A DNA stretch of 56,343 nt from Methylovirgula sp. (GTDB lineage: Bacteria; Pseudomonadota; Alphaproteobacteria; Rhizobiales; Beijerinckiaceae), in assembly GCA_043784625.1 (NCBI GenBank), contig JAYVYB010000144.1, positions 1 through 56,343 of the forward strand, read 5' to 3'. Made by a program: the position numbers and the translations under genes. Positions 1 through 17,940 of the stretch are shown one piece after another. The stretch's first letter is position 1, and each line of letters starts with the position of its first letter. The notes under the pieces are model-generated. The model saw nothing but the letters and a program-made list of their open reading frames with translations. It was not told the DNA's origin and searched no databases.

Positions 1-500
1 CGAGGCGAAATATTTAAGTATGCAGCGCGCTTCAATTCAGAAGTTGATATGTCTACAGTCCCATCCTCTAATATTAACTCATTACGGTTCAGCAAGATAT
101 CTTCGAAACCAGCATGCCAAAGCTTCATCGTTGCATCGGGGATGCCGGTGGTCACAAACAGCGTCACAGGCGCGTTATGTTTGCGGAAAAGCGGAACGAC
201 TTCCTCAAACGTGTCTCGATAGCAGTCATCGACTGAAAAATTTACGAATTTCTTGTGTAACTTTCCACCCGGTTTTACTCGTTCGGTTGCCTCGTCAAGA
301 GTGACAATGTCCCAACCGCTGTCAGCGAGATAGGCGAGTAAGTTATCGAGAAATTCCAGATTTAGATAGAAATCCCGATTTGGAAGTGAACGCCATCTGT
401 CCACAGACGCCCCGCGATGAAACGTGAAGAGACATCCGCGCGGACTCAGCGCTTCGCTGCACGCCCGTAAAAACGGTAGCGCCACTGTTGCGATGTTCAT
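1..500 (-). CDS. polysaccharide deacetylase family protein (NodB-homology); 5' portion only, gene runs off the left edge
   Basis: Not in the ORF track because no stop lies inside the window. My reverse-strand translation from ATG 500-498 gives MNIATVALPFLRACSEAL...GKLHKKFVNFSVDDCYRDTFEEVVPLFRKHNAPVTLFVTTGIPDAT... F-x-x-DD-x-x-x-D followed by P-x-T-x-F is the NodB-type deacetylase signature. The ATG overlaps the TGA (497-499) of the upstream flippase gene (ATGA). Visibly AT-rich: about 40-42% GC in the first two 60-nt lines by hand count. Confidence 0.55.
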   Translation of the reverse strand, partial: MNIATVALPFLRACSEALSPRGCLFTFHRGASVDRWRSLPNRDFYLNLEFLDNLLAYLADSGWDIVTLDEATERVKPGGKLHKKFVNFSVDDCYRDTFEEVVPLFRKHNAPVTLFVTTGIPDATMKLWHAGFEDILLNRNELILEDGTVDISTSELKRAAYLNISP

Positions 501-2074: not shown

Positions 2075-2208
2075 CGCAACATCCGCTTCGTCGGCGGCGG
2101 CGTCAGACGAGGACACCAAGCCTGACGGACGGTTCGGCAACCATTTCGAAATCCATTTTCGCCAATTAGAATCAGCTCTTTCTGGCTTGGAATTGGGGTC
2201 AGGCAGGG

Positions 2209-3606
2209 TCACCAATGATCCGATCCAGTAACTTGCGTACGAGAGGCCGGAAGCAAAACTGCGAAAGCCCAGAATAAAAACGCCAACTCCCCCGATAAAA
2301 ACCCCGACAGGGGCATTTGCACGAGGGCGCCGCATCCCAACGCTCCTACAACGACACCGGTACGTTTTTCACTCGACAATGCCGCCACAATGGCATTTGA
2401 CGCCGCCCAAACGCAGGCAGACAGGCACACCAACCCAACGACAATGCCCATACTCAGCCAACAAGAAATGATCATGCCATCTACAGCCACTGTTCCCGCT
2501 GAGCCCACGTCGACCACAGAATAGCCAGAACCAATCAAACCCGAATCGGGTTTATTCCAAAGCCAGGTGAACTGTTCTAAGCGCTCTCTTGCGCTGCCAT
2601 CGTCGGATCCTTGCCCAAGTGTAGCAAGTCGATCAGTGATAACGTCTCCAAAGGGGGTGAGCATGGCAATGAAAATGACTGCAACAATTCCTAGAATTGA
2701 AAATCCGGCGCGCTGCCGCGTAGGAGCAAATAGCAAACAGAAGCCGATAGCCGCAGCCATAACCAGCCACGCGGTGCGATATTGCGATAATAGCAGGGCG
2801 ATGGCCGCTGGAGCGGTCAGGATTAAAGGCAATATTCCGCCGCGCAAAAACAAAACCAAGATCAAGCCAACCGTCGTGAAAGTTGCGAAGCTGGCCGGGC
2901 CATTCATCACGCTATAGGTGCGAATGAGATAGGGCAATGGCTGTCCAGCCGAGAGAATGGTGGCGTATTTCATCCAGTAGCGATCCCAATCGGGCGGGTC
3001 AACATACTGATAAATCCCATAAATTCCCATTAATGGCAAAATCACGAGAAAAACCGAAGTTGCCGCTTCGATCATTCTGTCAGGGTCTTCCGCACGCATC
3101 AAAACGCTCGCGCCGTAAATCAGAGGCGCAATTGACTTCACGGTTCCGGACGCGGCATTGCTGAAATCACCAAGAAAAATTGTCAGGGCGGAGCCGTACA
3201 ACACACAAAATCCAACGATGACGAGGGGTACGATTTGCAAATTTGCAAAGGGCTTCCGTTCAAAATAGCCCGCCAGCGAAATTCCTGGGACAGTGATCGC
3301 CAGCAATGGGCCGATGAGCATGATGCTGCTGAAGTCGAATCCAACAGTCAAATCGACGTATCGGCGCACGAATGACACAAAGCAAAACAGCACGAGTGCC
3401 GTTTGCAAATGCGAGGCCGCGCTTTGACGCCACGCATAGTAGCCCACCGCGCCGCAACCCGCGACAAAAAGCGGGCGCGACAACGCGCCAAATGCCGGGC
3501 CGATCAACAACGTAATAATCAGCAAGCCTGCCGCGAGCAGCCATCCCGGAACGGTCAGCCTTGCCCGATCTTCCACAAGTTTGTCGGTTGAGCCGGTCGC
3601 AAGCAT
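2209..3606 (-). CDS. O-antigen ligase/polymerase-like (Wzy-type) integral membrane protein
   Basis: ORF 2209..3609, about 465 aa with roughly 10-12 hydrophobic helices, one larger loop and no soluble domain. It lies between the flippase and GT genes. The track start at 3609 is a TTG; the ATG at 3606-3604 overlaps the upstream TGA by 1 nt (TGATG). The family call rests on architecture and context only. Confidence 0.55.
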   Translation of the reverse strand: MLATGSTDKLVEDRARLTVPGWLLAAGLLIITLLIGPAFGALSRPLFVAGCGAVGYYAWRQSAASHLQTALVLFCFVSFVRRYVDLTVGFDFSSIMLIGPLLAITVPGISLAGYFERKPFANLQIVPLVIVGFCVLYGSALTIFLGDFSNAASGTVKSIAPLIYGASVLMRAEDPDRMIEAATSVFLVILPLMGIYGIYQYVDPPDWDRYWMKYATILSAGQPLPYLIRTYSVMNGPASFATFTTVGLILVLFLRGGILPLILTAPAAIALLLSQYRTAWLVMAAAIGFCLLFAPTRQRAGFSILGIVAVIFIAMLTPFGDVITDRLATLGQGSDDGSARERLEQFTWLWNKPDSGLIGSGYSVVDVGSAGTVAVDGMIISCWLSMGIVVGLVCLSACVWAASNAIVAALSSEKRTGVVVGALGCGALVQMPLSGFLSGELAFLFWAFAVLLPASRTQVTGSDHW

Positions 3607-4760
3607 CAAGACAACCCTCCCGGAGCAAGATCTTGAACCAAATCGCGGATTGAAGTTTGCATCCCTGCCACAGCATAAACGGTTTCGGCACGTTGTTGTG
3701 CGTAATCCAATTGGCCCGCAAAGCGCGGGGCGTCAGCGATTACGTTTTGAATGGCTGCGGCAAGCGCATCAACATCACCCGCCGCCACGAGACCACCCGC
3801 GTTGCCATTTTCCAGAATCTCGCCGCTGGCTCCGGCGTCGCTGGCAATGACCGGCACATGTGCCAACATTGCCTCAACCAAGGTGAGGCCAAACGGTTCC
3901 GCATCCACAGAAGGGTGTACAACGATGTCCATCGCGCGCATCAACTGTTGCACATCGCCTCTCTGCCCCAGAAACTTCACGCGGCTTTCCACTTGAAGCT
4001 CACGAACAAGCTGTTGCAACTTCGCGGCATAGGCTTGCTCGCCGAACAGTGCGTCTCCGGCAATGATCGCCGTCACCTGAGGACATTGGGCAACCGCGCG
4101 AATGACAATATCCTGCCCTTTCCACGCGGCTAACCTGCTGAAAACGCCGATCAACGGGCCATCGGGCAAGGACAGCTCTGTCCGCAATTGCGATTTTGAG
4201 CGCGATTCGGAAACTGCGGTGACGCCATTGGCAACCACCTTGACAAGAGCGGCGCGTCCGCCAGCCGCAACGAAGGCGTCAGCTGCCGCCAAAGAAGGCA
4301 CGATAACCAGTTTGGCGAACCGATTTGCCAGGAACACCTGCATTTTGAGCTGCTTGGCACCAAAATGCGCCTCACTTAAAATGTCGTGCAGGTGCCAGAC
4401 TAAATTTTTGCGGGTAAACATGCAGGACAGCGCGCTAAGCGTAAACGCTTTTTGTGAATTCGCATAAATAACGTCATATGCGCGTGTTTCGGTTCTGAGC
4501 TCCCAAACAAGGCGCGCGAGACCCGCCAGCAGTGGAAACGCGGCAGACAGCGAATTTGAGCGACGTACTCCGGCTAGATTTTGTCCGTGCACAGCCACTT
4601 TTACGCTCAATCCTGATGAGCGAAGCAAACCGGCCAAAGCGCCCTCTTCAAATACAAACGCTGCTGCATTTGGAAACGCTTTGACAACATCCACCAAAAC
4701 ACGTTCAGCGCCTGAAACTGCGCCGGTGTGACTAACAAAGACTATGCGGGGCGAAAGCAT
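3606..4760 (-). CDS. glycosyltransferase family 4 (GT-B)
   Basis: ORF 3606..4763. VVHPSVDAEPFGLTLVEAMLAHVPVIASDAGASGEIL is the GT4 E-x7-E donor-binding signature. The ATG at 4760-4758 overlaps the upstream TGA by 1 nt (TGATG); the track start at 4763 is a TTG. Confidence 0.8.
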   Translation of the reverse strand: MLSPRIVFVSHTGAVSGAERVLVDVVKAFPNAAAFVFEEGALAGLLRSSGLSVKVAVHGQNLAGVRRSNSLSAAFPLLAGLARLVWELRTETRAYDVIYANSQKAFTLSALSCMFTRKNLVWHLHDILSEAHFGAKQLKMQVFLANRFAKLVIVPSLAAADAFVAAGGRAALVKVVANGVTAVSESRSKSQLRTELSLPDGPLIGVFSRLAAWKGQDIVIRAVAQCPQVTAIIAGDALFGEQAYAAKLQQLVRELQVESRVKFLGQRGDVQQLMRAMDIVVHPSVDAEPFGLTLVEAMLAHVPVIASDAGASGEILENGNAGGLVAAGDVDALAAAIQNVIADAPRFAGQLDYAQQRAETVYAVAGMQTSIRDLVQDLAPGGLS

Positions 4761-6943
4761 CAACTTGCCCGGGCAAAAGCCGGCGCAGACGAGGAGCGCT
4801 TTTCGTAAAGCCCCTGTCGCGCCGTATCAACCATGGTCATGACAACCCCAACCACATGCCCGCCCGCAGTCTGCATGTCCCTCGCTATCGCGGAAACGTC
4901 AGCGATATCAGCTGAGCCCCAACGGGCGCAATAAATCACGCCGTCGACGCTGCCAGCAATGAGGCGGGCGTCCGGCTTGGACAAGGCGGAAGAACTGTCC
5001 AAAATTACAAGATCAAAGCGCTTTGCCCACAGCAACACGCTCTCGAGGTTATCGCCTGCCAACAATTCGCTGGAACTTACAACTGCCTGCCCGGCTGGAA
5101 TGACGAAGAGATTGGCGGTGTCAGTGGCAAAAATTGCCTCTTGCGGCTTTATTTTCTTGCGCAAGACCCCGGCCATGCCTTCTGAATCTGCCAAATTAAA
5201 CAATTTTGCAAACACCGGACGCTGAAAGTCACATTCCATAACCAAAACGCGTCGCCCAGCAAGCGCTGCTGTTTGCGCCAGAGCCAAGGCGGTGAACGTG
5301 CGACCCTCTTGAGGCGCGGCTGAACTTATTAAAACCGATTGCACATTTTTGGGCATGCCCTTCACGCGAAGGGAGGCAAAAACGCCATCCGTTGCCGAAA
5401 GGAAGCCCGCATCGGTTTTCGCGGCCGCCAGCGCCTCCGATAAGGGCAAGTCCGTCTGACCAGCTACCATATTCGAAAGACTGCGCCGGTTTGAACGCAA
5501 AAGCGGCAGCTCGGCGATAACAGGAAAACCTGTGCCGGAACTCAGCGCGGTGGCGCTGCGCAACCCCTGATCTTTTCGATCCAACATCATCGCCAAAGCA
5601 AACCCCAGAAGGGCGCCAAGGGTTAAACCGCCTGCCAGAAATGGAATTTTCTTGGGAAAAAACGGGATAATCGGCAGCTCCGCCAAACTTACGAGGCGCG
5701 TACTGCCTGCGAGCACGCGTTTTTGTGTTTCGAGATCGCCGACCTTCTTCGTCAGTTCAGTGTATTGCGTCCGTTTGATTTCCGCGTCCCGCACCAAATC
5801 TGCGATCGAGGCCTCGTCGTCGGATGCGGTACCGGCGTCGGACTGAACTTTGCCCAGTTGCTGCCGCAGGCTGGAAACAGTGGCATTCGCCGCGTCAAAA
5901 TTGCGCTGGGCACTGGCGGCAATGGAGTTCATTTCCTGATCAAGCCGCCGCCGCAACGAGTCTTGTTCTTGCTGCAAAGCAATAAGCGAGGGGTGTTTTG
6001 GCCCTAATGTGGCGGCATTGCTGGCGATTAGCCCTGCAATTGTTGCCATTTGTTGCTTTAGGTCCCCGACAGTCCGGCTGGCGATCACCGTCGGCAAATC
6101 TGTCAGACCGGAACTTTTCGCTTTTTTGACTTCGTTCAAACGCGCCAAGGCCTCGGCCCGCGCCGATTCTGCCAGATTCAGACTTTGGCTGGCACTGGAA
6201 AGCCGCTCCGAGCTGATGGGCGCAACCCCGCCCTTTACCAATCCATTTTTGCGTCGAAAGGCCTGGATGCGGTCTTCATCATCTTTCAACGATCCCTGCA
6301 ACTGAACCAACTGTTGCTTGAGCCAATTGGCCGCTTCTTCACGATTGTGGATGGCGGCGGCGCGTCGATCTCCCAAAAAAGCGTTGGTAAGCGCGTTCGC
6401 CATAGTTTGGGCCACTTCGGCAATTGGTGAGTCATACGAGATGTTGATGACGCGAGAGCGTCCGACAGCTGAAATCGAATAGTGCTGCTGAATCTGTTCA
6501 AGCAGCTTGTCGTTGGTTTTCACATCGCCTGTGCAAGACGCGTCTGCACCCAGCGGGATTATGCCGAACAGCTTCGATGTTCCGCGGGCCTGACATTCAC
6601 GAAGAATCGCCGATTGCGCCTCCGGAGTTTCTACCGCCAGTCTTAAAACCCGCGCGGCTTTGATCAGCAGTATCTGGCTTTCCATGTCCGCAGGATCGCC
6701 TAATTTGTCCGCGCCGCTAGGAGCCTGCGCATCAAGACCGATTTCGGGCTCTGCAACGATGACCGAGCCAATTGCCACATAACGAGTCTGAATGACCATT
6801 AATGCCAGAACAGCCAGCAGCAACGTGCCCAAAAAAGCGCTCAAAAACGCAGTTTTGTGCCTGAGCAGAATCGAAATGAAGTCATTCCTCGGCTTCGGGA
6901 CTCTATGTGGTGCCTGCGCGGACAAAGACTCCTGATGTTGCAT
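4760..6943 (-). CDS. polysaccharide co-polymerase / chain-length determinant with C-terminal P-loop domain (Wzc/ExoP/GumC-like)
   Basis: 727 aa. N-terminal TM helix (FLSAFLGTLLLAVLALMVI), a long coiled-coil periplasmic region, a second TM helix (IPFLAGGLTLGALLGFALAMML), then a BY-kinase-like domain (LISSAAPQEGRTFTALALA...VLVMECDFQRP...FDLVILDSSS). The Walker A is degenerate (see findings). Confidence 0.75.
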   Translation of the reverse strand: MQHQESLSAQAPHRVPKPRNDFISILLRHKTAFLSAFLGTLLLAVLALMVIQTRYVAIGSVIVAEPEIGLDAQAPSGADKLGDPADMESQILLIKAARVLRLAVETPEAQSAILRECQARGTSKLFGIIPLGADASCTGDVKTNDKLLEQIQQHYSISAVGRSRVINISYDSPIAEVAQTMANALTNAFLGDRRAAAIHNREEAANWLKQQLVQLQGSLKDDEDRIQAFRRKNGLVKGGVAPISSERLSSASQSLNLAESARAEALARLNEVKKAKSSGLTDLPTVIASRTVGDLKQQMATIAGLIASNAATLGPKHPSLIALQQEQDSLRRRLDQEMNSIAASAQRNFDAANATVSSLRQQLGKVQSDAGTASDDEASIADLVRDAEIKRTQYTELTKKVGDLETQKRVLAGSTRLVSLAELPIIPFFPKKIPFLAGGLTLGALLGFALAMMLDRKDQGLRSATALSSGTGFPVIAELPLLRSNRRSLSNMVAGQTDLPLSEALAAAKTDAGFLSATDGVFASLRVKGMPKNVQSVLISSAAPQEGRTFTALALAQTAALAGRRVLVMECDFQRPVFAKLFNLADSEGMAGVLRKKIKPQEAIFATDTANLFVIPAGQAVVSSSELLAGDNLESVLLWAKRFDLVILDSSSALSKPDARLIAGSVDGVIYCARWGSADIADVSAIARDMQTAGGHVVGVVMTMVDTARQGLYEKRSSSAPAFARAS

Positions 6944-8118
6944 CAGACCATCTCATGTTCATGGGCAGCCGGAGCTTTTTCATTATTTGGGACCAAAGGG
7001 GCGTGAACGCGATCAAACTGCTCCTGCACGAAAGTTTTGATTTCATCGCGAAAGCGGGCGGCGGAAAACCGTTCGGCTTGTTTGCGGCAGGATTGGCGCG
7101 AAAATTCACCCTCAATGGCGATAAATGCGCGCACACAGGCTGCAATATTTTGCGGCTGAGGTTCTGAAAAAAACATGCCGGTTTTATCAATACCGGTGGA
7201 TTTCACCGTTTCGAGCGCACCGCCACGCCCCAGCGCCAGCACCGGTGTGCCTTCCGCCTGCGCTTCAACCGGAATAATGCCGAAATCTTCCTCTGCGGCG
7301 AAAATAAAAGCGCGGGCGGTGGTCATAAGGTCGCGCATTTTCGCGTCGGTGACAAAGCCCTCGAATGTCACGTTCGGCCCGGCCATCTCCTTCAGCTTTT
7401 TGGCATCCGGCCCGTCGCCTGCAACGGTGAGTTTCAGATGCGGAAGCTCCGCAAACGCCTTCACAATCACATCAATATTTTTGTAAGGCACCAAACGACT
7501 GGCCACCAGAAAATGGTCGCCGCGCGGCACATCTTCCGACGCAGCGGACAAGTCAACCGGCGGATTGATCACCTTGGCGACCCGGCCATAAATCTTCAAA
7601 ATGCGGCGTGCGACAAAGCCTGAATTGGCGATCATCGCGTCGGGCCCGTGGGCGGTGCGCACATCCCAGATGCGCATGTGATACAGGATTATCCGCGCGA
7701 TAATGCTGCGAAGGCCTTTATCCGCCCCGGATTGGCGCAAATAAGCGTGCTGCAAATCCCAGGCATAGCGCATGGGCGAGTGGACATAGGCGACGTGAAC
7801 CTGGTTTGGCCCGGTCAGAATGCCCTTGGCAACCGCATAGCTGCTGGACACCACCAGATCATATTCAGAAAAATCCAACTGCTCGATGGCCAGCGGCATG
7901 AGCGGTAGATAGGCGCGATGCTTTTTGGCGATAAACGGCATCCGCTGCAAAAAGCTGGTTTTTACCGTGGAAATACCAATTTTTTTGCGGTCTTGCTCGG
8001 TTAGAACGTCAAAAAGGCAAAAAACATCGGCACCGGGATAGCATTTGAGCAGCTCGCTCAACACACGCTCCGCGCCGCCGATCACGTATAACCAGTCATG
8101 GACAATAGCCACACGCAT
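6943..8118 (-). CDS. glycosyltransferase family 4 (GT-B), first gene of the EPS operon
   Basis: 391 aa. MRVAIVHDWLYVIGGAERVL N-terminus and FIFAAEEDFGIIPVEAQAEGTPVLALGRGGALETV E-x7-E motif. The stop overlaps the next ATG by 1 nt. Confidence 0.8.
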   Translation of the reverse strand: MRVAIVHDWLYVIGGAERVLSELLKCYPGADVFCLFDVLTEQDRKKIGISTVKTSFLQRMPFIAKKHRAYLPLMPLAIEQLDFSEYDLVVSSSYAVAKGILTGPNQVHVAYVHSPMRYAWDLQHAYLRQSGADKGLRSIIARIILYHMRIWDVRTAHGPDAMIANSGFVARRILKIYGRVAKVINPPVDLSAASEDVPRGDHFLVASRLVPYKNIDVIVKAFAELPHLKLTVAGDGPDAKKLKEMAGPNVTFEGFVTDAKMRDLMTTARAFIFAAEEDFGIIPVEAQAEGTPVLALGRGGALETVKSTGIDKTGMFFSEPQPQNIAACVRAFIAIEGEFSRQSCRKQAERFSAARFRDEIKTFVQEQFDRVHAPLVPNNEKAPAAHEHEMV

Positions 8119-8520
8119 ACCAAAAGCCTTTAACAGAACGCAAACATCGAAATTTAGACCAAAATTAGAGCAACCGGGTTAAATCTTTCATAAGCCAAGC
8201 TGACAAAGGCGACCTCATCAGTGGCGCAATAAGCGCAGTCAAAATCGTTTTGTGCGAATTTGCCACCGATCTCAACTCTTGGTTAAGATTCATATCCGCC
8301 GCAAAATTCAGTCAAAATTGTGTAAAATGCAGCCTTTTCGCGCTTGAATTTGCCTGCTTGGTGCAGCAATTAACCAAAAAGCACCAAACACAACTGAAGT
8401 GCGAAGGCCGCGTTAACGCATTTCCGGGCACTGATTTTGTGGTTTGTTTACGAACTGAAGATATCGTTTTGCGACGAACAACATCACTGCCGCCAGTGAT
8501 AAACCTATCGGGGAACTTCA

Positions 8521-8772
8521 ATGGTCGAAGAAATTCGGCAGCTTATTGCCAAACACTGCAAAATGCCGACGGATGTTGTGACGCTTTCGGACACATCTGA
8601 CCTTTACGCCGCCGGTTTAAGCTCGTTTGCATCGGTGCAACTGATGCTGGCACTGGAAAACCACTACGACATCGAATTTCCCGAGACCATGCTCAACCGC
8701 AAAACCTTTTCCAGCATTGCGGCAATTGAGGCGGCGCTCAAACAAATCCTTCCAGCCGGAGCCGCAGCATGA
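8521..8772 (+). CDS. acyl/aminoacyl carrier protein (phosphopantetheine-binding)
   Basis: 83 aa. DLYAAGLSSFASVQLMLALE carries the carrier-protein GLxS attachment serine at the start of helix 2. GGGGA lies upstream of the ATG. The stop overlaps the next ATG (ATGA 8769-8772). Confidence 0.8.
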   Translation: MVEEIRQLIAKHCKMPTDVVTLSDTSDLYAAGLSSFASVQLMLALENHYDIEFPETMLNRKTFSSIAAIEAALKQILPAGAAA

Positions 8773-9956
8773 CATCGGTCCTTGCGCCAAACCTCTCCGT
8801 GGACATCGTCGCGCGGGCCAGGCGGGTGGGAGCAATAGCCGCGACCTTTGCTGCCGACGTTGACCTGCACGCCCGCTTTCCCGCCGAAACGGTTGCGGCG
8901 CTCAAAAGCGAACGTCTACTGAGCATTATGATCCCGAAAGAGCTTGGCGGTGAGGGCGCTTCGGCGGCACAAATTTGCGAGGTTTGCGCTATTCTGGGAC
9001 AAAATTGCGCCTCAAGCGCCATGATTTTCGCCATGCACCAGATCAAATTGTCGAGTCTGGTCTCGCATGGCATGGACGCGGACTGGCATCGCGGCTTCAT
9101 GCAGCAGATTTCGAAAGACCAGCTTTTGCTGGCCTCCGCCACCACAGAGGGTGGCATTGGCGGCGATTTGCGCAATTCAATCTGTGCGGTGGTCACCAAC
9201 GGCGATGATTTTACGCTCTCCAAGGATGCGACGGTCATTTCCTATGGTTCGGTTGCCGATGCCATTTTGGTGACCGCCCGCGCCAATCCTGACGCCCCCT
9301 CCTCGGACCAGGTCATGGTTGTGGCGCTCAAGGGGCAGTACACTCTGGAACAAACTTCCGTTTGGAACACGTTGGGCATGCGCGGCACCTGTTCGGAGGG
9401 GTTTAAATTTAACTGCACAGCCCCGGTTGCACAAATTTTGCCGAAGCCGTTTGCAGAGATAGCGGCGCAATCAATGCTCTCGGCTTCCCATCTGTTTTGG
9501 GGCGCGCTTTGGTATGGCATCGCCTCTGAAGCGTTCAACCGCGCCCAGGCTTTTGTCAAAGCAGCCGCGCGCCGCGCCCCAAGCGTCACGCCTCCGGGGG
9601 CTTTGCGCCTGTCGGAGGCGGCAGTCACGCTGCAAACTATGCGCGCAACTTTGAAGGAAGGCGTGCTGCGGTATGAAACGGCCCGCAAGCGCCCGGATGA
9701 TATGTCTTCCATTGCCTTTGCCACCGCGATTAACAACGTGAAGGTGGCTATGTCGCAATCCATGCTGGAGGTGATCGACCAATCCCTGCTGATTTGCGGC
9801 ATCATGGGTTATAAAAACGACACGCCTTTCAGCCTTGGACGCCATTTGCGCGATGCGCATTCGGCAAGGTTGATGATTTCCAACGATCGCATTTTGCTCA
9901 ATACGTCCAATTTGCTGCTGATGGCGCGGGCGGACTCCAGCATTTTAGGACTTTAA
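8769..9956 (+). CDS. acyl-CoA dehydrogenase-fold flavoprotein (dehydrogenase or ACAD-fold oxygenase)
   Basis: 395 aa with the ACAD three-domain layout: helical N-terminus ERLLSIMIPKELGGEGAS, a middle beta domain, and C-terminal helices ..GIMGYKNDTPFSLGRHLRDAHSARL.. It is translationally coupled to the ACP gene. Confidence 0.7.
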   Translation: MTSVLAPNLSVDIVARARRVGAIAATFAADVDLHARFPAETVAALKSERLLSIMIPKELGGEGASAAQICEVCAILGQNCASSAMIFAMHQIKLSSLVSHGMDADWHRGFMQQISKDQLLLASATTEGGIGGDLRNSICAVVTNGDDFTLSKDATVISYGSVADAILVTARANPDAPSSDQVMVVALKGQYTLEQTSVWNTLGMRGTCSEGFKFNCTAPVAQILPKPFAEIAAQSMLSASHLFWGALWYGIASEAFNRAQAFVKAAARRAPSVTPPGALRLSEAAVTLQTMRATLKEGVLRYETARKRPDDMSSIAFATAINNVKVAMSQSMLEVIDQSLLICGIMGYKNDTPFSLGRHLRDAHSARLMISNDRILLNTSNLLLMARADSSILGL

Positions 9957-10895
9957 ATGGCAAACCACATTGCAACCCCGCAAGCTGACTCCGCCCAATT
10001 GGAGTTTTTGAATGCCCTGTTTGACAAAGGCGTCTTGGTGGATACCGGCGTTGACGGTCTTTATGGCCGCTCTGGAGAATTTGAAGACGTGGTCACCCGT
10101 TTTGATGCGCTGGTCACACGTTATGGGGCTGCCGACAAAGCGGAGGCGATGCGTTTTCCGCCGGCCATGAGCCGCAAAACCTTCGAAACGTCGGGCTATC
10201 TAAAGAGTTTTCCGCAGCTTGCAGGCACCGTTCACTCTTTCTGCGGCAATGATCATGACCACACCACTTTGCTGGAGCGGGTCGCCACAGGTGAGGATTG
10301 GACCAAAGATCAACAGGCCACCGACGTGGTTTTGACGCCCGCTGCCTGCTACCCGCTTTATCCTGTCATCGCCAAACGGGGCCCTCTGCCCGTTGAAGGT
10401 CGTTTATTTGATTTGCAGAGCTATTGTTTCCGCCACGAACCTTCGCAAGACCCGGCACGTATGCAGCTGTTTCGTATGCGCGAATATGTCCGCGCCGGAA
10501 CGCCGGAGCAGGTGCTGGCATTTCGCGAAAGCTGGCTCGAGCGCGGACAAAAACTGATGGGGTCGCTTGGTGTTCCGTTGGAAATTGACATCGCCAACGA
10601 TCCGTTTTTTGGCCGCGCCGGGCGCATGATGAAGGCTGGACAGCGCGAACAGGGCTTAAAATTCGAACTGCTTATCCCGATTACCAGCACAGAAAAGCCG
10701 ACCGCCTGTCTGAGCTTTAACTACCATCAAGATCATTTTGGTCAGACTTGGGGCATTCAGACCGCCGATGGCGCTGTCGCACACACCGCCTGTGTCGGCT
10801 TTGGGCTTGAACGCGTAACATTGGCATTATTCAAGCATCATGGTCTCGATTTAGCCAAGTGGCCCAAGGCTGTAACCAAAGAACTCTGGGGTTAG
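9957..10895 (+). CDS. amino acid--[acyl-carrier-protein] ligase (SerRS-like class II aaRS catalytic core without tRNA-binding domain)
   Basis: 312 aa. Class II motif 2 is YCFRHEPS (aa 156-163) and motif 3 is [12 protein letters not shown] (aa 281-292). Cys131 (AACYP), Glu176 (MREY) and Cys279 (TACVG) sit where methanogen-type SerRS and aa:CP ligases hold their Zn. There is no coiled-coil or anticodon domain. The gene follows ACP and ACAD genes, as in the published Agrobacterium/Bradyrhizobium loci. Confidence 0.8.
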
Positions 10896-10901
10896 CGCTC
10901 C

Positions 10902-11891
10902 ATGGCTTTGGCCTGTTTTCCCGATACGCATTTGCACGGATACCAACGCCACGCGCTGCATGACAGCGAGCGCGCCTGGCCGGAAACCAACTGCTATGTT
11001 GATGTCTGGATTGAGGTTCTCTCGCAACTCAAGCTGCCGCCGCAAGCGGCGCTCGCCTTTACCGTGGCTCAGGATTTTGAAGGCGATCAGCTCACATTTT
11101 TCAAATATCCACTTGAAGACCTTGAAGCCGCCTATGGCATCAAGGTGCAGGAACTGGCGATTTTTGATGATGTGGCCGAGCATATCGCCGTGCAACTCGG
11201 GCGAAAACGCCTCTGCCTCGTGGAAATGGACAGTTTTTATATGCCGGACACCCACGGGGTGGCCTATGGTCTTGAGCATGGAAAGACCACTGTAGCGATT
11301 AACCGCCTCGATATTGGCGCTAAAACCATGGAATATTTCCACAACGGCGGCTATTTCAGGCTTGAGGGCGCAGATTTTGACGGCGTATTTCAGAAACATG
11401 CCAAAGACGCACTGTTTTTGCCCTACACCGAATTTGCCAAATTTGATGATCTGCAAAAACTTGATGACCTGCAAGACGCAAAAGACCTGCATCAGCGCAG
11501 TTTAAAGCTTTTGGCGCATCACCTTGCCCGCCGTCCCAAACACAATCCGGTTGCGGCATTTGCCGGAGTTTTCGCCGGTCAGGCCAGCGCATTGATATCC
11601 AAGCCCGAGGGATTTTTCCATAAATATGCCTTCAACACCTTACGGCAGATGGGCGCAAACTTCGCGCTGCTGGCTGACTATCTGCGATGGCTCGTGGCAA
11701 ACGGCGAAACTGAGCTTTCAAGCGCGATAGAGGGTGCCGATCGTATTTCCGATACTGCCAAAGTTGTACAGTTTCAGTTGGCGCGCGCTGTTGCCCGCCA
11801 GAAGTTTGATACGCTTGGCACGACGCTCGAACCCGCCGTTGAAGCTTGGGAGACGACGATGAGCCATCTCGCCTCCCGCTATGGCCACTGA
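10902..11891 (+). CDS. hypothetical protein, DUF1839-like (family name from memory, unverified); possible papain-fold acyltransferase
   Basis: 329-aa soluble ORF packed between the ligase and the GH2 gene. It has a Cys31 motif (WPETNCYVDVWIEVL) followed by His126 (GLEHGKTTVAI). The coding call is supported by operon packing; the function is not established. Confidence 0.6.
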   Translation: MALACFPDTHLHGYQRHALHDSERAWPETNCYVDVWIEVLSQLKLPPQAALAFTVAQDFEGDQLTFFKYPLEDLEAAYGIKVQELAIFDDVAEHIAVQLGRKRLCLVEMDSFYMPDTHGVAYGLEHGKTTVAINRLDIGAKTMEYFHNGGYFRLEGADFDGVFQKHAKDALFLPYTEFAKFDDLQKLDDLQDAKDLHQRSLKLLAHHLARRPKHNPVAAFAGVFAGQASALISKPEGFFHKYAFNTLRQMGANFALLADYLRWLVANGETELSSAIEGADRISDTAKVVQFQLARAVARQKFDTLGTTLEPAVEAWETTMSHLASRYGH

Positions 11892-14307
11892 TATGCGCGC
11901 GTTTTCGCGCACTGAAGGCGAGGAATTCGAAATTCTGAATTCCGGTTGGCGCATGGCCGCCGGGCACTATGCGACGCCATTTGACCTTGAAAACGCCGAT
12001 TGGCTCAGTGCTATTGTACCCGGAACCGTCGCTGGCGCGCTTGCAAACAACGGCAAATTTGACCCGCAAAACCCTCATCCCTTGCAAAATCAGGATTTTT
12101 GGTATCAGAGCATCATCAGCGGCGCTGGCACTTATGAGCTGCACTTTGACGGATTGGCCACCCTGGCAGATGTGTATCTCGACGAGACATTGGTATTGTC
12201 ATCGTCGAACATGTTCCACAAAAATGTGGTGAGCGTCACCCTGCAAGGCGACCACCGGCTTTCGATTCATTTTCGCGCACTAACCTCCGCGCTTGCGGCG
12301 TCAAAACCCCGCGCCCGCTGGCGGACACAGATGATGCCTGAGCAGGGGCTGCGCCATGTCCGCACCGCTTTGCTCGGGCACATGCCCGGATGGTGCCCCA
12401 ACATCGAGGCTATTGGCCCGTGGCGTCCGATTTCGTTGGTAAAAACGCATGCTTTAAACCCGCGCAATTTGCGCATTCAGGCCGAGCTTCACGGCGACAA
12501 TGGCAAACTTTCTGTCGGCATTGACCTTGAGAGCGGAAAACGCGTGGAGCTGCACTGCGGCGAACATTCGACCCAGATGCACGACAATGGCGGCACATAC
12601 GTTGGCGTTCTTAACATCGAAAATGTGCGAAAATGGTGGCCGCATACGCATGGCGAGCCTGCGCTTTATCCGCTTTCTCTCAAAATCGATGGTCAAAAAA
12701 TCGATCTCGGTAACACCGGATTCCGGCAAATAGTGATTAATCGCGGTGCTGATGGCAAGGACTTCGCGCTTTTTTGCAATGGCAAGCCCATTTTCTGCCG
12801 TGGCGCGGTCTGGACCAATGCAGACATTCTCAACCTTTCCGGCACACGCGAAACCTACGCGCCGTTTTTGCAGCTCGCCCGCGACGCAAGTTTCAACATG
12901 CTGCGCATGAGCGGCACTGGCGCTTACGAAACCCGCGCCTTTTACGACCTTTGCGCCGAACTTGGCATCCTGATTTGGCAGGACTTCATGTTTGCCAACT
13001 TTGACTACCCCACATCAAACCAAGACTTTTCCGCATCCTGCTCCAAGGAAGCGGCAGATTTTCTTGAAACAACGCAAGGCAATCCGGCATTGGCGGTGCT
13101 GTGCGGCGGCAGCGAAATGTACCAGCAAGCCGCCATGATGGGCCTGCCTGCGGCAAGCTGGCCTCAAGACCTCTCAGAAACGATTTTAGAGGGCGCTGGC
13201 TTCGAAGTCCGCCCTGATATGCCATATGTGGTCAATTCGCCTAGTGGAGGCCCCCTGCCCTTCGCAGCGAACGAAGGCGTCACCCATTATTACGGCGTTG
13301 GCGCCTACAAGCGCCCGCTGGACGATGCCCGCCGCGCCAATGTCCACTTCGCCACAGAATGTCTGGCATTTTCGCAGGTTCCGGATGGCAACCTCGACCC
13401 TGCGGATGCGCACTGGAAACACACCGTCCCCAAAGACCGGGGCGCAGATTGGGATTTTGAAGACACCCGGGAATTTTATCTGGAAACCCTGTTCAAAACC
13501 AACGCCGCAGAGCTTCGCGCCGCCACGCCTCAACTTTGGCTGGAAGCCTCCCGCGCTGTCACCGGTCATGTCATGGAAACCACATTCGCCGAGTGGCGGC
13601 GCGTGGGATCAAGCTGCAACGGCGCGTTGGTATGGACGTTTCAGGATATGCAGGCCGGGTTGGGATGGGGCATCGTCACGGCAAAATCACAGCCGAAACC
13701 TGCCTGGTTCGCCCTCAAGCGCGCCTGCAAACCGCAACAGGTTTTGCTCACCGACGAGGGCTGCAATGGCCTGTCCATTCACCTGATCAACGAAAGCGCC
13801 GCCCCGCTTGCAGCCAGACTGGAATTTAGCTGCCTGCAACACAACGGCCTCGCCATTATCCACGAAGAAAAATATGTCACGCTGCCGCCGCGATCGGCGC
13901 AGGAGATAGCTTCATCGAGCATGATCGGGGCTTTTTTCGATACAACCTATGCGTATCGGTTTGGCCCGCAGGCGCACTATGGCTCTGTTGCCAAGCTGTA
14001 TGACACAGTGGCAGGAACTCTCATTGCCGAAGCGTTTCACTTCCCAGAAATGCGGGCGCTTGACCGGCATGAAATTGCTTTTACCGCGCGCCTCGAGGTC
14101 AGCCCGGCCGGAACAGATCTCATTTTGGAAACGCCGGAATTTCTACACTTTGTTCATATTCATGACGTAGAGTTGAGGCCAAGCGATAACTGGTTTCATC
14201 TTGAACCGGGCCGCGCAAAACGCGTGAAACTGGCCGGTTTCAAACCTGATTCAAAAATTGAGGTTTCGGCGCTTAATGCCACCAATCAGGTCGCAATTAT
14301 TCAGTAA
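11881..14307 (+). CDS. glycoside hydrolase family 2-like protein (beta-mannosidase / exo-glucosaminidase type)
   Basis: 808 aa. WQDFMFANFDYP, CGGSEMYQ and FATECLAFSQVP resemble the GH2 TIM-barrel strands that carry the acid/base and nucleophile Glu. No signal peptide. The ATG overlaps the preceding gene by 11 nt (alternative ATG at 11893). Confidence 0.7.
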   Translation: MATDMRAFSRTEGEEFEILNSGWRMAAGHYATPFDLENADWLSAIVPGTVAGALANNGKFDPQNPHPLQNQDFWYQSIISGAGTYELHFDGLATLADVYLDETLVLSSSNMFHKNVVSVTLQGDHRLSIHFRALTSALAASKPRARWRTQMMPEQGLRHVRTALLGHMPGWCPNIEAIGPWRPISLVKTHALNPRNLRIQAELHGDNGKLSVGIDLESGKRVELHCGEHSTQMHDNGGTYVGVLNIENVRKWWPHTHGEPALYPLSLKIDGQKIDLGNTGFRQIVINRGADGKDFALFCNGKPIFCRGAVWTNADILNLSGTRETYAPFLQLARDASFNMLRMSGTGAYETRAFYDLCAELGILIWQDFMFANFDYPTSNQDFSASCSKEAADFLETTQGNPALAVLCGGSEMYQQAAMMGLPAASWPQDLSETILEGAGFEVRPDMPYVVNSPSGGPLPFAANEGVTHYYGVGAYKRPLDDARRANVHFATECLAFSQVPDGNLDPADAHWKHTVPKDRGADWDFEDTREFYLETLFKTNAAELRAATPQLWLEASRAVTGHVMETTFAEWRRVGSSCNGALVWTFQDMQAGLGWGIVTAKSQPKPAWFALKRACKPQQVLLTDEGCNGLSIHLINESAAPLAARLEFSCLQHNGLAIIHEEKYVTLPPRSAQEIASSSMIGAFFDTTYAYRFGPQAHYGSVAKLYDTVAGTLIAEAFHFPEMRALDRHEIAFTARLEVSPAGTDLILETPEFLHFVHIHDVELRPSDNWFHLEPGRAKRVKLAGFKPDSKIEVSALNATNQVAIIQ

Positions 14308-14347
14308 AAACTCATTTTTTCATTTCACGTTTTCAATAATTTGAGCC

Positions 14348-16144
14348 CTATTTAGGATTCAAAGTCTCAACACGTTGAATCACTTTCGCAATCTCTTCAA
14401 AAATAGCGATTTGTGCATGCCCAGCGGTCATGTTGTGATCTGCATCATCAACAGTGCGTAATGTGACATTGGGAAACCGCGTCAACCACACGCCGCCGCC
14501 GCCACAGTATTTTGCCAGCTCGTCCAAGCCGCCATCCCCTTGCGCGTAAACCAAACCCACCTGAACGCGGCGCTGCTCAAACCCGAAAAACCGGGCGCGA
14601 ACCTGACCTCTCAACCGCCCGAGCAGCGTCAAATCTCCGGTTAATCCAACCAGTTTGGAGTTCAGTTTTGCGCCCATTTTGGCGGCCACTTTTCGCGCCA
14701 GTGACACAACCGGGAGCTGAAATGTGACCAGCCTTACCAAGGTGTCCCGGGACAATGCCCGCGCGCCGTAGGAGCCCAGAGAGCCTGAACCACCGGCCAT
14801 TGCCTGTTCCAAAGTTTCATCCGGGTTCCAGATCAGACGCAAGGCATTGATCGAAACCAAGCCGGAAATACGCGGGTCAGACTCCGCCGCAAGACCGGCA
14901 ATATAGGCGCCGGAACACCGCCCCGCGACAATGACAGGCCCCGCTTGGCGCGCACAAACCATATCGATAGCATGGCCTACATCGTCAATTTGCACCTGTG
15001 AATACAGCACATCCGGCGGGCTGTCGGGCGCGGTGTCACTGTCGCCAAGGCTGGCACAATCCATGCGCAAAGTGGCAATGCCAATGGAGGCAAGCCGCCG
15101 CGCCAGAGCAACATGTCCGCGCGCCCAACCCACATGCGGATTGTAGCCCGAATTGGGAATGATCACTGTCGCGCGGCGCGCACCGTGCGGCAAACATAGC
15201 ACGCCATAGAGCCGGCCATTCGGCCCAAAGCATAAGGCCTCTTCGGAAAATCCGTCTCGATCTTGCCGCAAAACTGCGTCGCCAATAGGTAAATCGCGAC
15301 CCTCCTGTTCACCACGGTCAGGGAATTTTTGCTCAAGCCAAGCGGAAATTTTCGCAAAATCGTCAACGGGCGCGCGCGGAGTCTCCAGATGCGCCACAAA
15401 AGCATCATAGCCTTCAAAATTCTGTACGGTCACAGCCACCCCGTGCGCAACGAGGCTTGCAGCAAAATCCGCGTCGGAGGGGCGATGTTCGCGGGCCAGA
15501 ACAAGTGCGGAGGCAACAGTTTCCAGCCCGCTACTTTCGGGCTTCAGACTCTTAAGCTGCTCAACCAGCGGCTTGGACAGACGAAATCCGCCGATGTTAA
15601 GCGCGTCATTGGCATCAAGCTCAACCGGAATGCGCAACGCCGAAGCAACCATTGCCCCCCATAGTTCCAGCTCCCGCACCCCGGAGCGCCCGCCCGGCAT
15701 GGGGGCAAGCGCAATCAGCGCCCCAGCGCTAATTTTATCAACCATTTCAACGCCAAGGAGAGCGCCAAGCCCCTGACCCAACACCACAAGATGCTCAATT
15801 ACAGTGCTTTCACGCAAAAACTGTGCGGCCTTTTCAACGGCGGACAGCCAGTCATTGACGTCGATAATGTCGCTGTTGTGGCCAAGACTGTCACCGGTTC
15901 CCGGCAAATCAAACCGCAAACAGGCGAAACCTGCCGCAGCCAGCGTTTCGGCCAACCGCCGCCACCCCTGCCGGATGGTGAATTCCTCAAAGCCCCACGG
16001 CGAAATCATCAAAACGCCGACATTGCCGCGCGCGGGGTGCAGAAATCCGGCACAACCGTCAAAAGCGACAGGGATACCGCCTTTGCGGTCAAAAAGCCCG
16101 GATTTTGCGGCAAGCGCAGACGCATCTGTTTGAAGTAGGGTCAT
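14348..16144 (-). CDS. fused tandem alpha/beta-hydrolase-fold protein (two modules)
   Basis: 598 aa. Two homologous halves: aa ~30-290 (GVLMISPWGFEE...LRFDLPGTGDSLG...VLGQGLGA) and aa ~300-598 (ATVIIPNSGYNP...LRMDCASLGDSD...VAGRCSGAY...DDADHNM). Convergent with the GH2 gene. Confidence 0.65.
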   Translation of the reverse strand: MTLLQTDASALAAKSGLFDRKGGIPVAFDGCAGFLHPARGNVGVLMISPWGFEEFTIRQGWRRLAETLAAAGFACLRFDLPGTGDSLGHNSDIIDVNDWLSAVEKAAQFLRESTVIEHLVVLGQGLGALLGVEMVDKISAGALIALAPMPGGRSGVRELELWGAMVASALRIPVELDANDALNIGGFRLSKPLVEQLKSLKPESSGLETVASALVLAREHRPSDADFAASLVAHGVAVTVQNFEGYDAFVAHLETPRAPVDDFAKISAWLEQKFPDRGEQEGRDLPIGDAVLRQDRDGFSEEALCFGPNGRLYGVLCLPHGARRATVIIPNSGYNPHVGWARGHVALARRLASIGIATLRMDCASLGDSDTAPDSPPDVLYSQVQIDDVGHAIDMVCARQAGPVIVAGRCSGAYIAGLAAESDPRISGLVSINALRLIWNPDETLEQAMAGGSGSLGSYGARALSRDTLVRLVTFQLPVVSLARKVAAKMGAKLNSKLVGLTGDLTLLGRLRGQVRARFFGFEQRRVQVGLVYAQGDGGLDELAKYCGGGGVWLTRFPNVTLRTVDDADHNMTAGHAQIAIFEEIAKVIQRVETLNPK

Positions 16145-16410: not shown

Positions 16411-16556
16411 GGCCATATTTGGCCTGAAATTTAGGCAAAATTTATAAATATGTTTGTTTTCAACACTTTAGCTTGGCCGACTTTTGGCCACTTAACGGCG
16501 CAGTTCGGCCAAAAACCGGCCAAACATGGCCAAGGCAAACCAGCGCGAAACTGGCC
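16411..16556. repeat. helically phased array of GGCC(A) motifs in the rbsK-hydrolase intergenic region
   Basis: GGCC begins at 16411, 16421, 16475, 16486, 16507, 16518, 16528 and 16553. The spacings are 10, 54, 11, 21, 11, 10 and 25 nt. The usual context is YYGGCCA. An AT-rich block at 16430-16470 splits the array. Confidence 0.6.
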
Positions 16557-17476: not shown

Positions 17477-17484
17477 AGCCCGGC

Positions 17485-17940
17485 TCACTTCGAATCTGGA
17501 GGGATAACGCCCTTGCGCAGCGCGAAACAGCCATAAAACCGCCGCTCGCCGGTTTGAATAACGCAAAACGCTTTTTTGGCGCGCTCGTAAAAGGCGTAGC
17601 GCTCAATCGACATCATCGGCCAGGATTTGCCTTCGGCAAAATCAATCGCGGCTTGCACTTCTTGTTGCACAGCAGGGATCTCATGCGGCTGGCCGACAAC
17701 TTCCATCCGCGCCGCTGCATCGGTGACAAATGTATCAAGCGGATAGACCGAAAGCACTGCCGTAGCAGCAGTGGCGGCGGAAACATTATCGATGGTAAGC
17801 AGCTTACCGAGCTGCGTTTGCAACGCCACAGACTGCGCCGGGAAATTTGTATCGCAGATGATGAGATCATCGCCGTGGCCCATCGCACGCAAAGCGCCGA
17901 GCACCTCGCTGTTCAGCAGCGGAGAAATTCCTTTAAGCAT
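17485..17940 (-). CDS. fucU: RbsD/FucU-family sugar mutarotase
   Basis: 151 aa. MLKGISPLLNSEVLGALRAMGHGDDLIICDTNFPA ... YAFYERAKKAF..TGERRFYG is collinear with E. coli FucU as I remember it. Confidence 0.7.
   Translation of the reverse strand: MLKGISPLLNSEVLGALRAMGHGDDLIICDTNFPAQSVALQTQLGKLLTIDNVSAATAATAVLSVYPLDTFVTDAAARMEVVGQPHEIPAVQQEVQAAIDFAEGKSWPMMSIERYAFYERAKKAFCVIQTGERRFYGCFALRKGVIPPDSK

Follow-up and report, generated by a model that had tools for sequence, protein, structure and literature searches.

What is made by a carrier-protein cassette that stands back to back with an exopolysaccharide (EPS) operon? This question is raised by positions 8521 to 16144 of a contig of 56,343 nucleotides from Methylovirgula sp. 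(GenBank assembly GCA_043784625.1, contig JAYVYB010000144.1), the whole of which is called the window here. Five genes on its plus strand encode an acyl carrier protein (ACP), a flavoenzyme with the acyl-CoA dehydrogenase (ACAD) fold, an amino acid:carrier protein ligase related to seryl-tRNA synthetase (SerRS), a DUF1839 protein and a GH2 protein, and a tandem alpha/beta-hydrolase is encoded next to them on the minus strand. With a probability of roughly 0.45, we propose that they form a cytoplasmic carrier-protein pathway, by which an amino sugar in a glycan destined for export receives a modified small acyl group derived from glycine or alanine; in the window, this glycan would most likely be the product of the adjoining Wzx/Wzy/Wzc operon.

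The window is a further member of a known, functionally unsolved cassette system. The neighbourhood of the Atu2571-2575 type was described in a note added in proof, in which the DUF1839 protein Atu2574 was predicted, from gene context, to ligate an amino acid to an amino sugar of the cell surface (Aravind, de Souza and Iyer, 2010; PMC2922099), and a role of DUF1839 in cell-wall glycans was suggested again in 2023 (PMC10318531). The aminoacyl decoration put forward in the first-pass annotation of this DNA had thus been published in 2010 and is not new. As to the rest of that interpretation, the gene identities, the idea of a transferase and the likeness to exosortase-A loci have stood, the wiring to an EPS operon is borne out in part only, and the double hydrolase does not have two active halves. 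No functional study of the cassette was found in the literature searched. Several things are added here: DUF1839 is given a structural assignment, the active sites of the ACAD, GH2 and hydrolase proteins are dissected, the synteny is put into numbers, the context of Bll0957 is told apart from that of DUF1839/GH2, and homology to the exosortase-A hydrolases is recognised. The genes in question are the following:

8521..8772, plus strand: dedicated acyl carrier protein (NF005480/PRK07081, 106.6 bits against a cutoff of 72; phosphopantetheine serine Ser35, in GLSS)
8769..9956, plus strand: ACAD-fold flavoenzyme of a distinct subfamily without the canonical catalytic Glu (three weak Pfam domains)
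9957..10895, plus strand: amino acid:carrier protein ligase, a SerRS-core homolog without the tRNA-binding domain (NF005479/PRK07080, 524 bits against a cutoff of 357)
10902..11891, plus strand: DUF1839 protein, papain-like, predicted carrier-protein-dependent transacylase (Pfam PF08893, 418 bits)
11881..14307, plus strand: cytoplasmic GH2 beta-mannosidase-like protein, always paired with DUF1839 (Pfam and PDB beta-mannosidases)
14348..16144, minus strand: tandem alpha/beta-hydrolase of 598 aa (N-half TIGR03101, C-half TIGR03100)

Layout and conservation of the cassette

All six open reading frames (ORFs) are present where the first-pass annotation had placed them, and a check of the junctions agreed with it throughout: the ACP and ACAD genes share an ATGA overlap (8769-8772), the ACAD stop codon TAA (9954-9956) is followed immediately by the ligase ATG at 9957, and the DUF1839 and GH2 genes overlap by 11 nt. 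The five cassette genes are translationally coupled in the window, and the convergent gene of the tandem hydrolase ends 40 nt past the GH2 stop codon. The domain calls for the six genes were also recovered in Pfam and NCBIfam searches, and the same gene set was obtained from independent gene calls on metagenome contigs with an identical DUF1839 protein. None of the six proteins carries a signal peptide or a transmembrane segment (0/6).

A genome scan with the ligase gave 384 relatives, of which the best 80 loci were kept for the synteny counts; the nearest genome was that of a Methylovirgula metagenome-assembled genome (MAG), with a ligase identity of 94%. A survey of gene neighbourhoods, as had been suggested with the first-pass annotation, showed that the five-gene order recurs: ACP-ACAD-ligase-DUF1839-GH2 is collinear on one strand in 74/80 loci, the other six being contigs that end inside the cassette, and it spans at least 25 taxon groups. 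The scan loci comprise many genera of Hyphomicrobiales, Azospirillum and Myxococcota, to which annotated replicons add Burkholderia, Mycetohabitans, Caballeronia and Cupriavidus, and metagenome contigs add Gemmatimonadota and an unassigned contig of 466 kb with a phosphopantetheinyl transferase gene in front of the cassette. Counts by genus in the replicon collection are nearly the same for DUF1839 as for the close ligase subfamily. The DUF1839 and GH2 genes never separate, and neither is missing from any locus whose contig reaches that far.

The genes and their order (ACP, ACAD, ligase, DUF1839, GH2) are the same as in the Agrobacterium Atu2571-Atu2575 type. An Agrobacterium vaccinii locus also has this order, with a ligase 66% and a DUF1839 protein 60% identical to those of the window. 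Unlike the Agrobacterium locus, the window has the convergent tandem hydrolase and the divergent Wzx/Wzy/Wzc operon; hydrolase and Wzx/Wzy/Wzc genes are absent within 10 kb of the Agrobacterium cassette, which is followed by an MsbA/HepA/ChvA-like ABC exporter.

The crystallised ligase Bll0957 of Bradyrhizobium does not belong to this cassette type. The Bradyrhizobium locus (ligase 90% identical to Bll0957) consists of a divergent ACP, an ACAD and a protein of 294 aa, and DUF1839 and GH2 are absent. The window shares with the Bradyrhizobium Bll0957/Bsr0959 system the ligase equivalog, a dedicated ACP and an ACAD of the unusual subfamily, but differs from it in having DUF1839 and GH2 instead of the 294-aa protein. 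In Bradyrhizobium sp. STM 3562, the gene of this protein (11005-11889) follows the ligase gene, where DUF1839 would be. The 294-aa protein had no match in Pfam or NCBIfam, and its identification as a hidden DUF1839 was rejected (hhalign probability of 0.1); it may be the downstream enzyme of the crystallised Bll0957 system. Since the Bll0957 locus has neither DUF1839 nor GH2, its downstream chemistry may differ, and the Bll0957 results carry over to the loading step only.

A second variant was observed on a Priestia megaterium plasmid (NZ_CP085444.1; 8139-16686 of the stretch retrieved), in the order acpS, ACP, ACAD, ligase, DMT transporter, DdaF-like ATP-grasp ligase, small hydrolase, alanine permease and alanine racemase, which hints at alanine as the substrate and at a small molecule as the product. 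ACP, ACAD and ligase are the older core, and because the Bradyrhizobium and Priestia trios differ downstream of it, we regard the DUF1839/GH2 pair as one of several downstream modules.

Three further loci deserve description. A Gemmatimonadota MAG (GCA_039030015.1, locus L087, 2145-10937) has genes for a NodB-type deacetylase, ACP, ACAD, DUF1839, GH2 and a protein of 978 aa in which the tandem hydrolase is joined to a PF13480 domain; no aminoacyl-tRNA synthetase (aaRS)-like ligase was found within the 12.5 kb fetched, and the place of the loader may be taken by the fused PF13480 domain, or a ligase gene may be present elsewhere on this contig. On Rhizobium leguminosarum pRL7 (CP090199.1), the cassette is broken by insertion sequences IS110, IS5 and IS4, with GH2 and ACAD not annotated, which suggests that it is decaying in that strain. 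A contig labelled as uncultured Flavobacteriaceae carries a full cassette of alphaproteobacterial type (ligase identity of 71%), and this taxonomic label is probably a binning error.

Enzymes of the cassette

The ligase and its dedicated neighbouring ACP, as first annotated, both score above the curated NCBIfam cutoffs. Ser35 of the ACP is invariant (n=64 orthologs), and the ACP gives weak NCBIfam matches to DltC too. The ligase has 312 aa and matches in Pfam only the tRNA-synt_2b core; its matches to SerRS of the methanogen type are confined to residues 123-309, and it aligns with the Bll0957 structures at E = 3.5e-97. Residues Cys131, Glu176 and Cys279 are the same in Bll0957 and are invariant (n=59 orthologs), and we take them to be the zinc ligands of the active site, as in the Bll0957 structures. 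The ligase family comprises at least 7604 sequence clusters at E <= 1e-50. Mocibob and co-workers are said to have described, in 2010, SerRS-like amino acid:carrier protein ligases of Agrobacterium and Bradyrhizobium. Ligases of this type load Gly or Ala onto a neighbouring carrier protein, as reviewed (PMC5370406, PMC9437257), and their biological role was given as unknown in a 2022 review (PMC9437257). By analogy with the activity reported for these homologs, the window ligase may load Gly or Ala onto the holo-ACP.

The N, M and C domains of ACADs are all matched weakly by the flavoenzyme in Pfam, and its residues 24-371 align with the ACAD structure 3pfd (E = 3.6e-20). When the protein is aligned to bona fide ACADs with the RDA motif as anchor, Ile370 stands at the Glu of the YEG motif, and this position is Ile or Val in 67/67 orthologs; the alternative base position in helix G, as in the isovaleryl-CoA-dehydrogenase type, is occupied by Ser240. 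His241, Trp244, Trp248, Asn372, Asp373 and Arg374 are invariant among the orthologs. The signature LM(I/V)xNDR is common to the ACADs of Bradyrhizobium, Priestia, Mycetohabitans, Agrobacterium and Gemmatimonadota, and since it occurs in every context subtype, we consider these proteins a distinct ACAD-fold subfamily tied to this carrier protein. Because the usual catalytic Glu is missing, we infer an oxidation at the C-alpha-N bond or at the nitrogen rather than an alpha,beta-desaturation; glycine has no beta-carbon, so that classical desaturation is unlikely for it. The flavoenzyme would then oxidise the carrier-tethered aminoacyl group, with imino/2-oxoacyl or N-oxygenated groups as candidate products.

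An AlphaFold2 model of the DUF1839 protein, built from an alignment of 40 sequences (pLDDT of 89, pTM of 0.90), consists of an N-terminal alpha/beta part of strands and helices (residues 1-180) and C-terminal helices (184-327). The sole significant PDB matches of this model in Foldseek were AziU3/U2, CtaG and CcbD, all over the full length (TM-score of 0.51-0.62, E = 3e-6 to 4e-4, ~330 columns, 11-15% identity), and the matched CcbD structures include those with its amino sugar and with a peptidyl carrier protein domain. Cys31, in the motif TNC31Y, is invariant in sets of 58 and of 40 sequences and begins the helix 31-42. His147 and Asp158 are also invariant, and Cys31/His147/Asp158 are spaced like Cys11/His128/Asp144 of CtaG. 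Single-sequence and profile searches gave no match of DUF1839 to CcbD or CtaG in the PDB, and PF08893 was the only match in Pfam; since a sequence match to the solved relatives is lacking, the catalytic His/Asp assignment comes from the spacing alone.

CcbD, a condensation enzyme of lincosamide synthesis, and CtaG are papain-like enzymes that form amides and depend on a carrier protein. CcbD is loaded on its Cys with an amino acid tethered to a carrier protein, and the sugar amine then attacks (PMC12945683). CtaG is a two-domain enzyme with Cys-His-Asp, and the paper on it (PMC12865890) describes it as structurally unrelated to CcbD. The DUF1839 model fits both about equally well; DUF1839 may bridge CtaG and CcbD, or a common C-terminal helical domain may drive both model matches. 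DUF1839 shares with CcbD/LmbD and CtaG/BtrH/AsbE the layout of an N-terminal papain-like and a C-terminal helical part, with an invariant N-terminal Cys, and with CcbD the involvement of a carrier protein (the window ACP gene is two genes upstream), the acceptor of CcbD being an amino sugar. It differs from CcbD and CtaG in being a separate Pfam family that is always paired with a GH2 protein, in a donor whose loader is an aaRS-like ligase rather than an adenylation domain, and in a context of polysaccharide assembly instead of an antibiotic cluster. DUF1839 is linked to an ACP gene in every cassette locus. We predict from the model that DUF1839 is a carrier-protein-dependent transacylase using Cys31, and the earlier idea of a transferase from ACP to an acceptor gains strength from the full-length model match to CcbD and CtaG.

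In the GH2 protein, Pfam recognises the domains Glyco_hydro_2_N2, Glyco_hydro_2 and mannosidase Ig. Among solved structures, beta-mannosidases come closest (E = 3.7e-43), the match to 2vjx spanning residues 39-784. The motif GGSE412 aligns with the acid/base motif CGNNE of 6bye and 2vjx, and the candidate nucleophile Glu493 lies within FAxE493xLAF. Ser411, Glu412 and Glu493 are kept in 69/69 orthologs, and because both candidate glutamates are conserved, the protein is probably catalytic. All 69 have Ser411 in place of the usual Asn before the acid/base Glu. This Asn of the NE motif normally contacts the 2-substituent of the sugar, and Ser411 would fit an unusual group at C2.

The hydrolase was annotated at first as a fused double alpha/beta-hydrolase. 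Its nucleophile elbows speak against two active halves: that of the N-half reads G-x-(G/R)-x-G and lacks a nucleophile, and that of the C-half reads G-x-C410-x-G, with Cys410 and His570 present in 53/53 sequences and Asp/Glu537 in 52/53, down to 22% identity. Judged from these motifs, the protein combines a pseudo-enzyme, its N-half, with a C-half that bears a putative Cys-His-(Asp/Glu) triad. The C-half matches TIGR03100 with 93 bits (cutoff of 168, E = 2e-26) and the N-half TIGR03101 with 65 bits (cutoff of 203, E = 8e-18), and every family member scanned had TIGR03101 and TIGR03100 as its two best matches, always below the cutoffs. The comparison with exosortase-A (XrtA/EpsH1) loci, which had been drawn as an analogy, holds and can be raised to homology by these best matches. 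As in the exosortase-A set, a hydrolase-2-like N-half and a hydrolase-1-like C-half occur with a carrier protein, an adenylating loader and EPS genes. Unlike in that set, the window loader is an aaRS homolog and the hydrolase scores lie below the curated cutoffs; no exosortase or PEP-CTERM gene was found in the 20 kb of the window examined.

The tandem hydrolase is found within 10 kb of the ligase in 58/80 loci, with varying position and strand. A fold search returned generic esterases and lipases only, each covering one half. An exhaustive search with the C-half gave 4616 relatives; among the best 150, no stand-alone protein that was tested reached the TIGR03100 cutoff. In some relatives the hydrolase is joined to a carrier protein (L086) or to a FemAB/GNAT-like domain, PF13480 (L087 and L090). 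Locus L086 (JGI 3300001278, 4794-9612) encodes an EctB-like diaminobutyrate transaminase, a stand-alone adenylation (A) domain of the nonribosomal peptide synthetase (NRPS) type and a carrier protein fused to the hydrolase-2/hydrolase-1 tandem, and is flanked by a GH10 xylanase and a polysaccharide lyase; DUF1839 is absent from it. Since the relatives accompany three different loading systems, namely the aaRS-like ligase, the stand-alone NRPS A domain and, by homology, the AMP-ligase of exosortase-A loci, we consider that the hydrolase belongs with aminoacyl-carrier proteins.

Polysaccharide genes around the cassette

Genes in the flanks were called with a codon model trained on the core genes of each locus and clustered, and representatives were annotated; the codon model replaced a longest-ORF caller, which gave antisense shadow ORFs in high-GC loci, and a GC3 filter, which lost real genes of the window. 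Polysaccharide genes lie within 10 kb of the cassette in 55/80 loci and 17/25 taxon groups, these being raw counts, for which "enriched" is a judgement and not a statistic. Recurrent neighbours are GT4 glycosyltransferases (three clusters), Wzc, two types of Wzx, a Wzy-like membrane protein, a secreted GH5 protein, a GumK-like glycosyltransferase, Acyl_transf_3 and an OpgH-like GT2.

At least eight arrangements of polysaccharide genes around the cassette were observed. They are divergent and upstream in the window and in Methylobacterium, convergent and downstream in Pannonibacter, Roseibium and Rhizobium, and on both sides in Bosea. In Kaistia, genes for a GT4, a hydrolase, a GH5 and another GT4 run co-directionally straight into ACP-ACAD-ligase, and in the Gemmatimonadota locus L087 the NodB-type deacetylase gene lies directly 5' of the ACP gene. 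NodB-like genes near the cassette were also found in Roseibium, Pannonibacter and two Hyphomicrobiales MAGs, and Acyl_transf_3 genes adjoin it in Methylobacterium, Mycetohabitans and one MAG.

The six-gene Wzx/Wzy/Wzc operon that had been annotated in the window, across a gap of 402 bp, was recovered with Pfam and by the intergenic coordinates:

1..507, minus strand: NodB-type polysaccharide deacetylase, sixth gene of the EPS operon (N-terminal part only, cut by the window edge)
497..2335 (longest ORF), minus strand: MurJ/Wzx-type flippase (Pfam MurJ, 89 bits)
2209..3609, minus strand: Wzy-type polymerase or O-antigen-ligase-like membrane protein (Pfam Wzy_C, weak)
3606..4763, minus strand: GT4 glycosyltransferase (Pfam; flank cluster 6)
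4760..6943, minus strand: Wzc-like chain-length regulator/tyrosine autokinase (GNVR and P-loop domains; flank cluster 7, 8 taxon groups)
6943..8118, minus strand: GT4 glycosyltransferase, first gene of the EPS operon (Pfam)
8119..8520, no strand: AT-rich divergent intergenic region of 402 bp (sequence)

The GT4 at 6943..8118 has orthologs (64-81% identity) at the corresponding place in Methylovirgula and Methylobacterium, and the GT4 at 3606..4763 belongs to the GT4 cluster that accompanies the cassette most widely (13 taxon groups, the window counted). The nearest NCBIfam models of the latter are TIGR03088 (PEP-CTERM/XrtA glycosyltransferase), EpsE, BshA, PelF and MshA, all below their cutoffs, and the Wzc-like protein matches eps_transp_fam with 177 bits, also below cutoff. 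The flippase starts at ~2212 in an independent gene call (571 aa). The deacetylase frame reads ...FSVDDCYRDT... and matches PgaB-type deacetylases weakly. An assignment of the operon as a PEP-CTERM/exosortase locus was rejected, all such matches being far below cutoffs; to judge by their sequence matches, the EPS genes of the window are generic Wzx/Wzy types. G+C content is 0.505 in 1-2000 and 0.543 in 2001-4000, against ~0.55-0.60 for most of the window, and the flippase and polymerase genes could have been acquired separately.

In the intergenic region, islands near-identical to the Methylovirgula MAG lie at ~8146-8195, 8277-8289, 8309-8330 and 8433-8455, and a direct repeat, CAGTCAAAATYGT, occurs at 8236 and 8309. 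No Rfam family was detected in 8000-8600, including an amino-acid riboswitch upstream of the ACP gene, and promoter- or terminator-like matches near the region were not above shuffled controls.

Downstream of the cassette, the window has genes for a PfkB kinase, RbsD/FucU and modE-modABC (16556-21514). Genes resembling modABC also lie a few kb from the Agrobacterium cassette (L089, 1-2084), and their presence near both cassettes may be a remnant of a shared chromosomal position. The sugar-catabolism clusters at 24000-50400 (three FGGY kinases, two sugar-type ABC ATPases, a fusion of class II aldolase and short-chain dehydrogenase/reductase, a large aldehyde dehydrogenase and an iron-containing alcohol dehydrogenase) are unrelated to the cassette.

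Proposed pathway and rival explanations

Every step of the pathway that we propose would be cytoplasmic, the product being exported afterwards by Wzx/Wzy or, at other loci, by an ABC exporter. At the expense of ATP, the SerRS-like ligase would charge the phosphopantetheine arm of the ACP with Gly or Ala, a step shown biochemically for homologs, to whose family the window ligase belongs, and the ACAD-fold flavoenzyme would oxidise the tethered aminoacyl group at the C-alpha-N bond or at the nitrogen. Cys31 of DUF1839 would then take the acyl group and pass it to a free sugar amine, in a ping-pong manner like that of CcbD, as the fold, the invariant residues and the gene linkage suggest. The acceptor amine would stem from an N-acetyl-hexosamine added by a GT4 and treated afterwards by a NodB-type deacetylase, and de-N-acetylated hexosamine units are a likely acceptor class. 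As a best guess, the GH2 partner may bind or trim the sugar acceptor, and the acyl-carrier protein may also be a substrate of the Cys-type tandem hydrolase, which would be an editing thioesterase or else a second acyltransferase.

Nod factors are N-acylated by means of the NodB deacetylase, the NodF carrier protein and the NodA N-acyltransferase, and mycothiol and bacillithiol are made with a GT4, a deacetylase and a CysRS-like ligase. The proposed pathway follows the logic of these systems, in which GlcNAc is added and de-N-acetylated and the amine is re-acylated via a dedicated carrier or an aaRS paralog (a comparison drawn in part from PMC2922099). GT4s, NodB-type deacetylase, ACP and aaRS paralog are the parts shared by the window. 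It differs from Nod-factor, mycothiol and bacillithiol synthesis in that no homology to NodA, MshC or BshC was found, the GT4 likeness to MshA and BshA is weak, and the proposed acyl group is a small oxidised amino acid.

Several observations weigh against this proposal. The tie between cassette and polysaccharide is known here from genes alone, and the count of 55/80 stands without a background rate from random 20-kb windows. Polysaccharide genes are present within 10 kb in 0/8 Azospirillum and 0/6 Myxococcota loci and in neither Agrobacterium nor locus L088; in Azospirillum and Myxococcota the neighbours are instead methyl-accepting chemotaxis proteins, an SbmA-like ABC transporter, GH1, M20 peptidases, rhomboid and FHA proteins. 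The first-pass annotation had the cassette "wired to" an EPS operon, and had named cassettes lacking polysaccharide genes nearby as evidence to the contrary: the neighbours in 55/80 loci agree with the wiring, and the bare cassettes of these four groups of loci contradict it in part. The cytoplasmic GH2 protein and the second Cys enzyme have no necessary role in the scheme, the product of the ACAD in it is a guess, and the likeness of the GT4s to UDP-GlcNAc-using enzymes is weak (27-77 bits, far below cutoffs). To our knowledge, the top structural match of DUF1839, AziU3/U2, is not known as a transacylase, and all characterised structural relatives of DUF1839 act in small-molecule pathways. 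Finally, the reading of His147 and Asp158 as the catalytic His and acid rests on spacing, and a different triad, C-(T/S)-H, was proposed for DUF1839 (PMC10318531).

The main rival to glycan decoration is a small-molecule product. The cassette would make an aminoacylated glycoside of low molecular weight, which might be a cofactor, a signal, an osmolyte or a compound like an antibiotic, with a logic resembling that of mycothiol/bacillithiol or lincosamide synthesis, and the EPS genes would be its neighbours through shared sugar precursors or co-regulation. The cassettes that stand alone in Azospirillum, Myxococcota and L088, the ABC exporter that follows in Agrobacterium and the Bradyrhizobium variant without sugar genes are what one would expect from it, as are the pathways of CcbD and CtaG (and, via CtaG, of BtrH and AsbE), all of which lead to small molecules, and the Priestia trio, which with its ATP-grasp ligase, DMT transporter and alanine permease/racemase resembles a small-molecule operon. 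We nevertheless consider this explanation rather unlikely: polysaccharide-assembly genes recur in 17/25 taxon groups in many arrangements, including the Kaistia arrays and the junction of deacetylase and ACP genes in L087, and the cassette conserves neither a gene for a small aglycone nor one for the tailoring of sugar nucleotides.

The tandem hydrolase offers another way to divide the labour, in which the Cys-type enzyme is the terminal transferase to a glycan hydroxyl, giving an ester as in Dlt-type systems, and DUF1839 does something else, for instance a CtaG-like elongation between two carrier-bound aminoacyl groups. In its favour, the hydrolase family travels with three different carrier-loading systems, one of them (L086) without DUF1839; Cys410 and His570, invariant to 22% identity, would suit a thioester-to-thioester transfer, and the weak DltC matches of the ACP and the Acyl_transf_3 genes beside the cassette in Methylobacterium, Mycetohabitans and one MAG point the same way. 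This division is improbable, however, for an enzyme that is absent within 10 kb in 22/80 loci and in Agrobacterium, where DUF1839 and GH2 are constant, that, in contrast to the Dlt transfer machinery, lacks both signal peptide and membrane segments, and whose fold search gives generic esterases only. We hold it to be very improbable that GH2 and hydrolase form a catabolic or remodelling set for an imported or stored glycan, with the carrier-protein genes as an unrelated neighbour. The two candidate catalytic glutamates kept in GH2, the GH1 glycosidase, SbmA-like transporter and M20 peptidases next to the Azospirillum cassettes and the wealth of sugar-catabolism genes in the rest of the window would fit such a set; ATP-dependent loading of a carrier protein is biosynthetic, though, the five genes are coupled in translation here and collinear in 74/80 loci across phyla, DUF1839 and GH2 never separate, and no uptake system is conserved.

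Decoration of an exported glycan is the explanation that we prefer, and it can be put in a wider form, which we regard as doubtful: a widespread thiotemplated pathway of Alpha- and Betaproteobacteria, Myxococcota and Gemmatimonadota would install an oxidised N-acyl group derived from Gly or Ala on an amino sugar of a secreted glycan, as a cytoplasmic parallel, chiefly among Gram-negative bacteria, to the carrier-protein-dependent glycan acylation of the Nod-factor and Dlt types, and the hydrolase-2/hydrolase-1 tandem would be a general off-loader of aminoacyl-carrier proteins, shared with exosortase-A EPS loci and with systems of stand-alone NRPS A domains.

The role of the SerRS-like amino acid:carrier protein ligases has been an open question since 2010. 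For the cassette, a guess from gene context is turned here into specific tests, with DUF1839 as the named transferase, CcbD as its structural precedent and Cys31 as the residue, and the Cys410 hydrolase ties it to the equally unexplained accessory genes of exosortase-A. If the proposal is true, the pathway would represent a novel type of surface-glycan decoration in plant-associated and soil bacteria, and would give DUF1839 a function.

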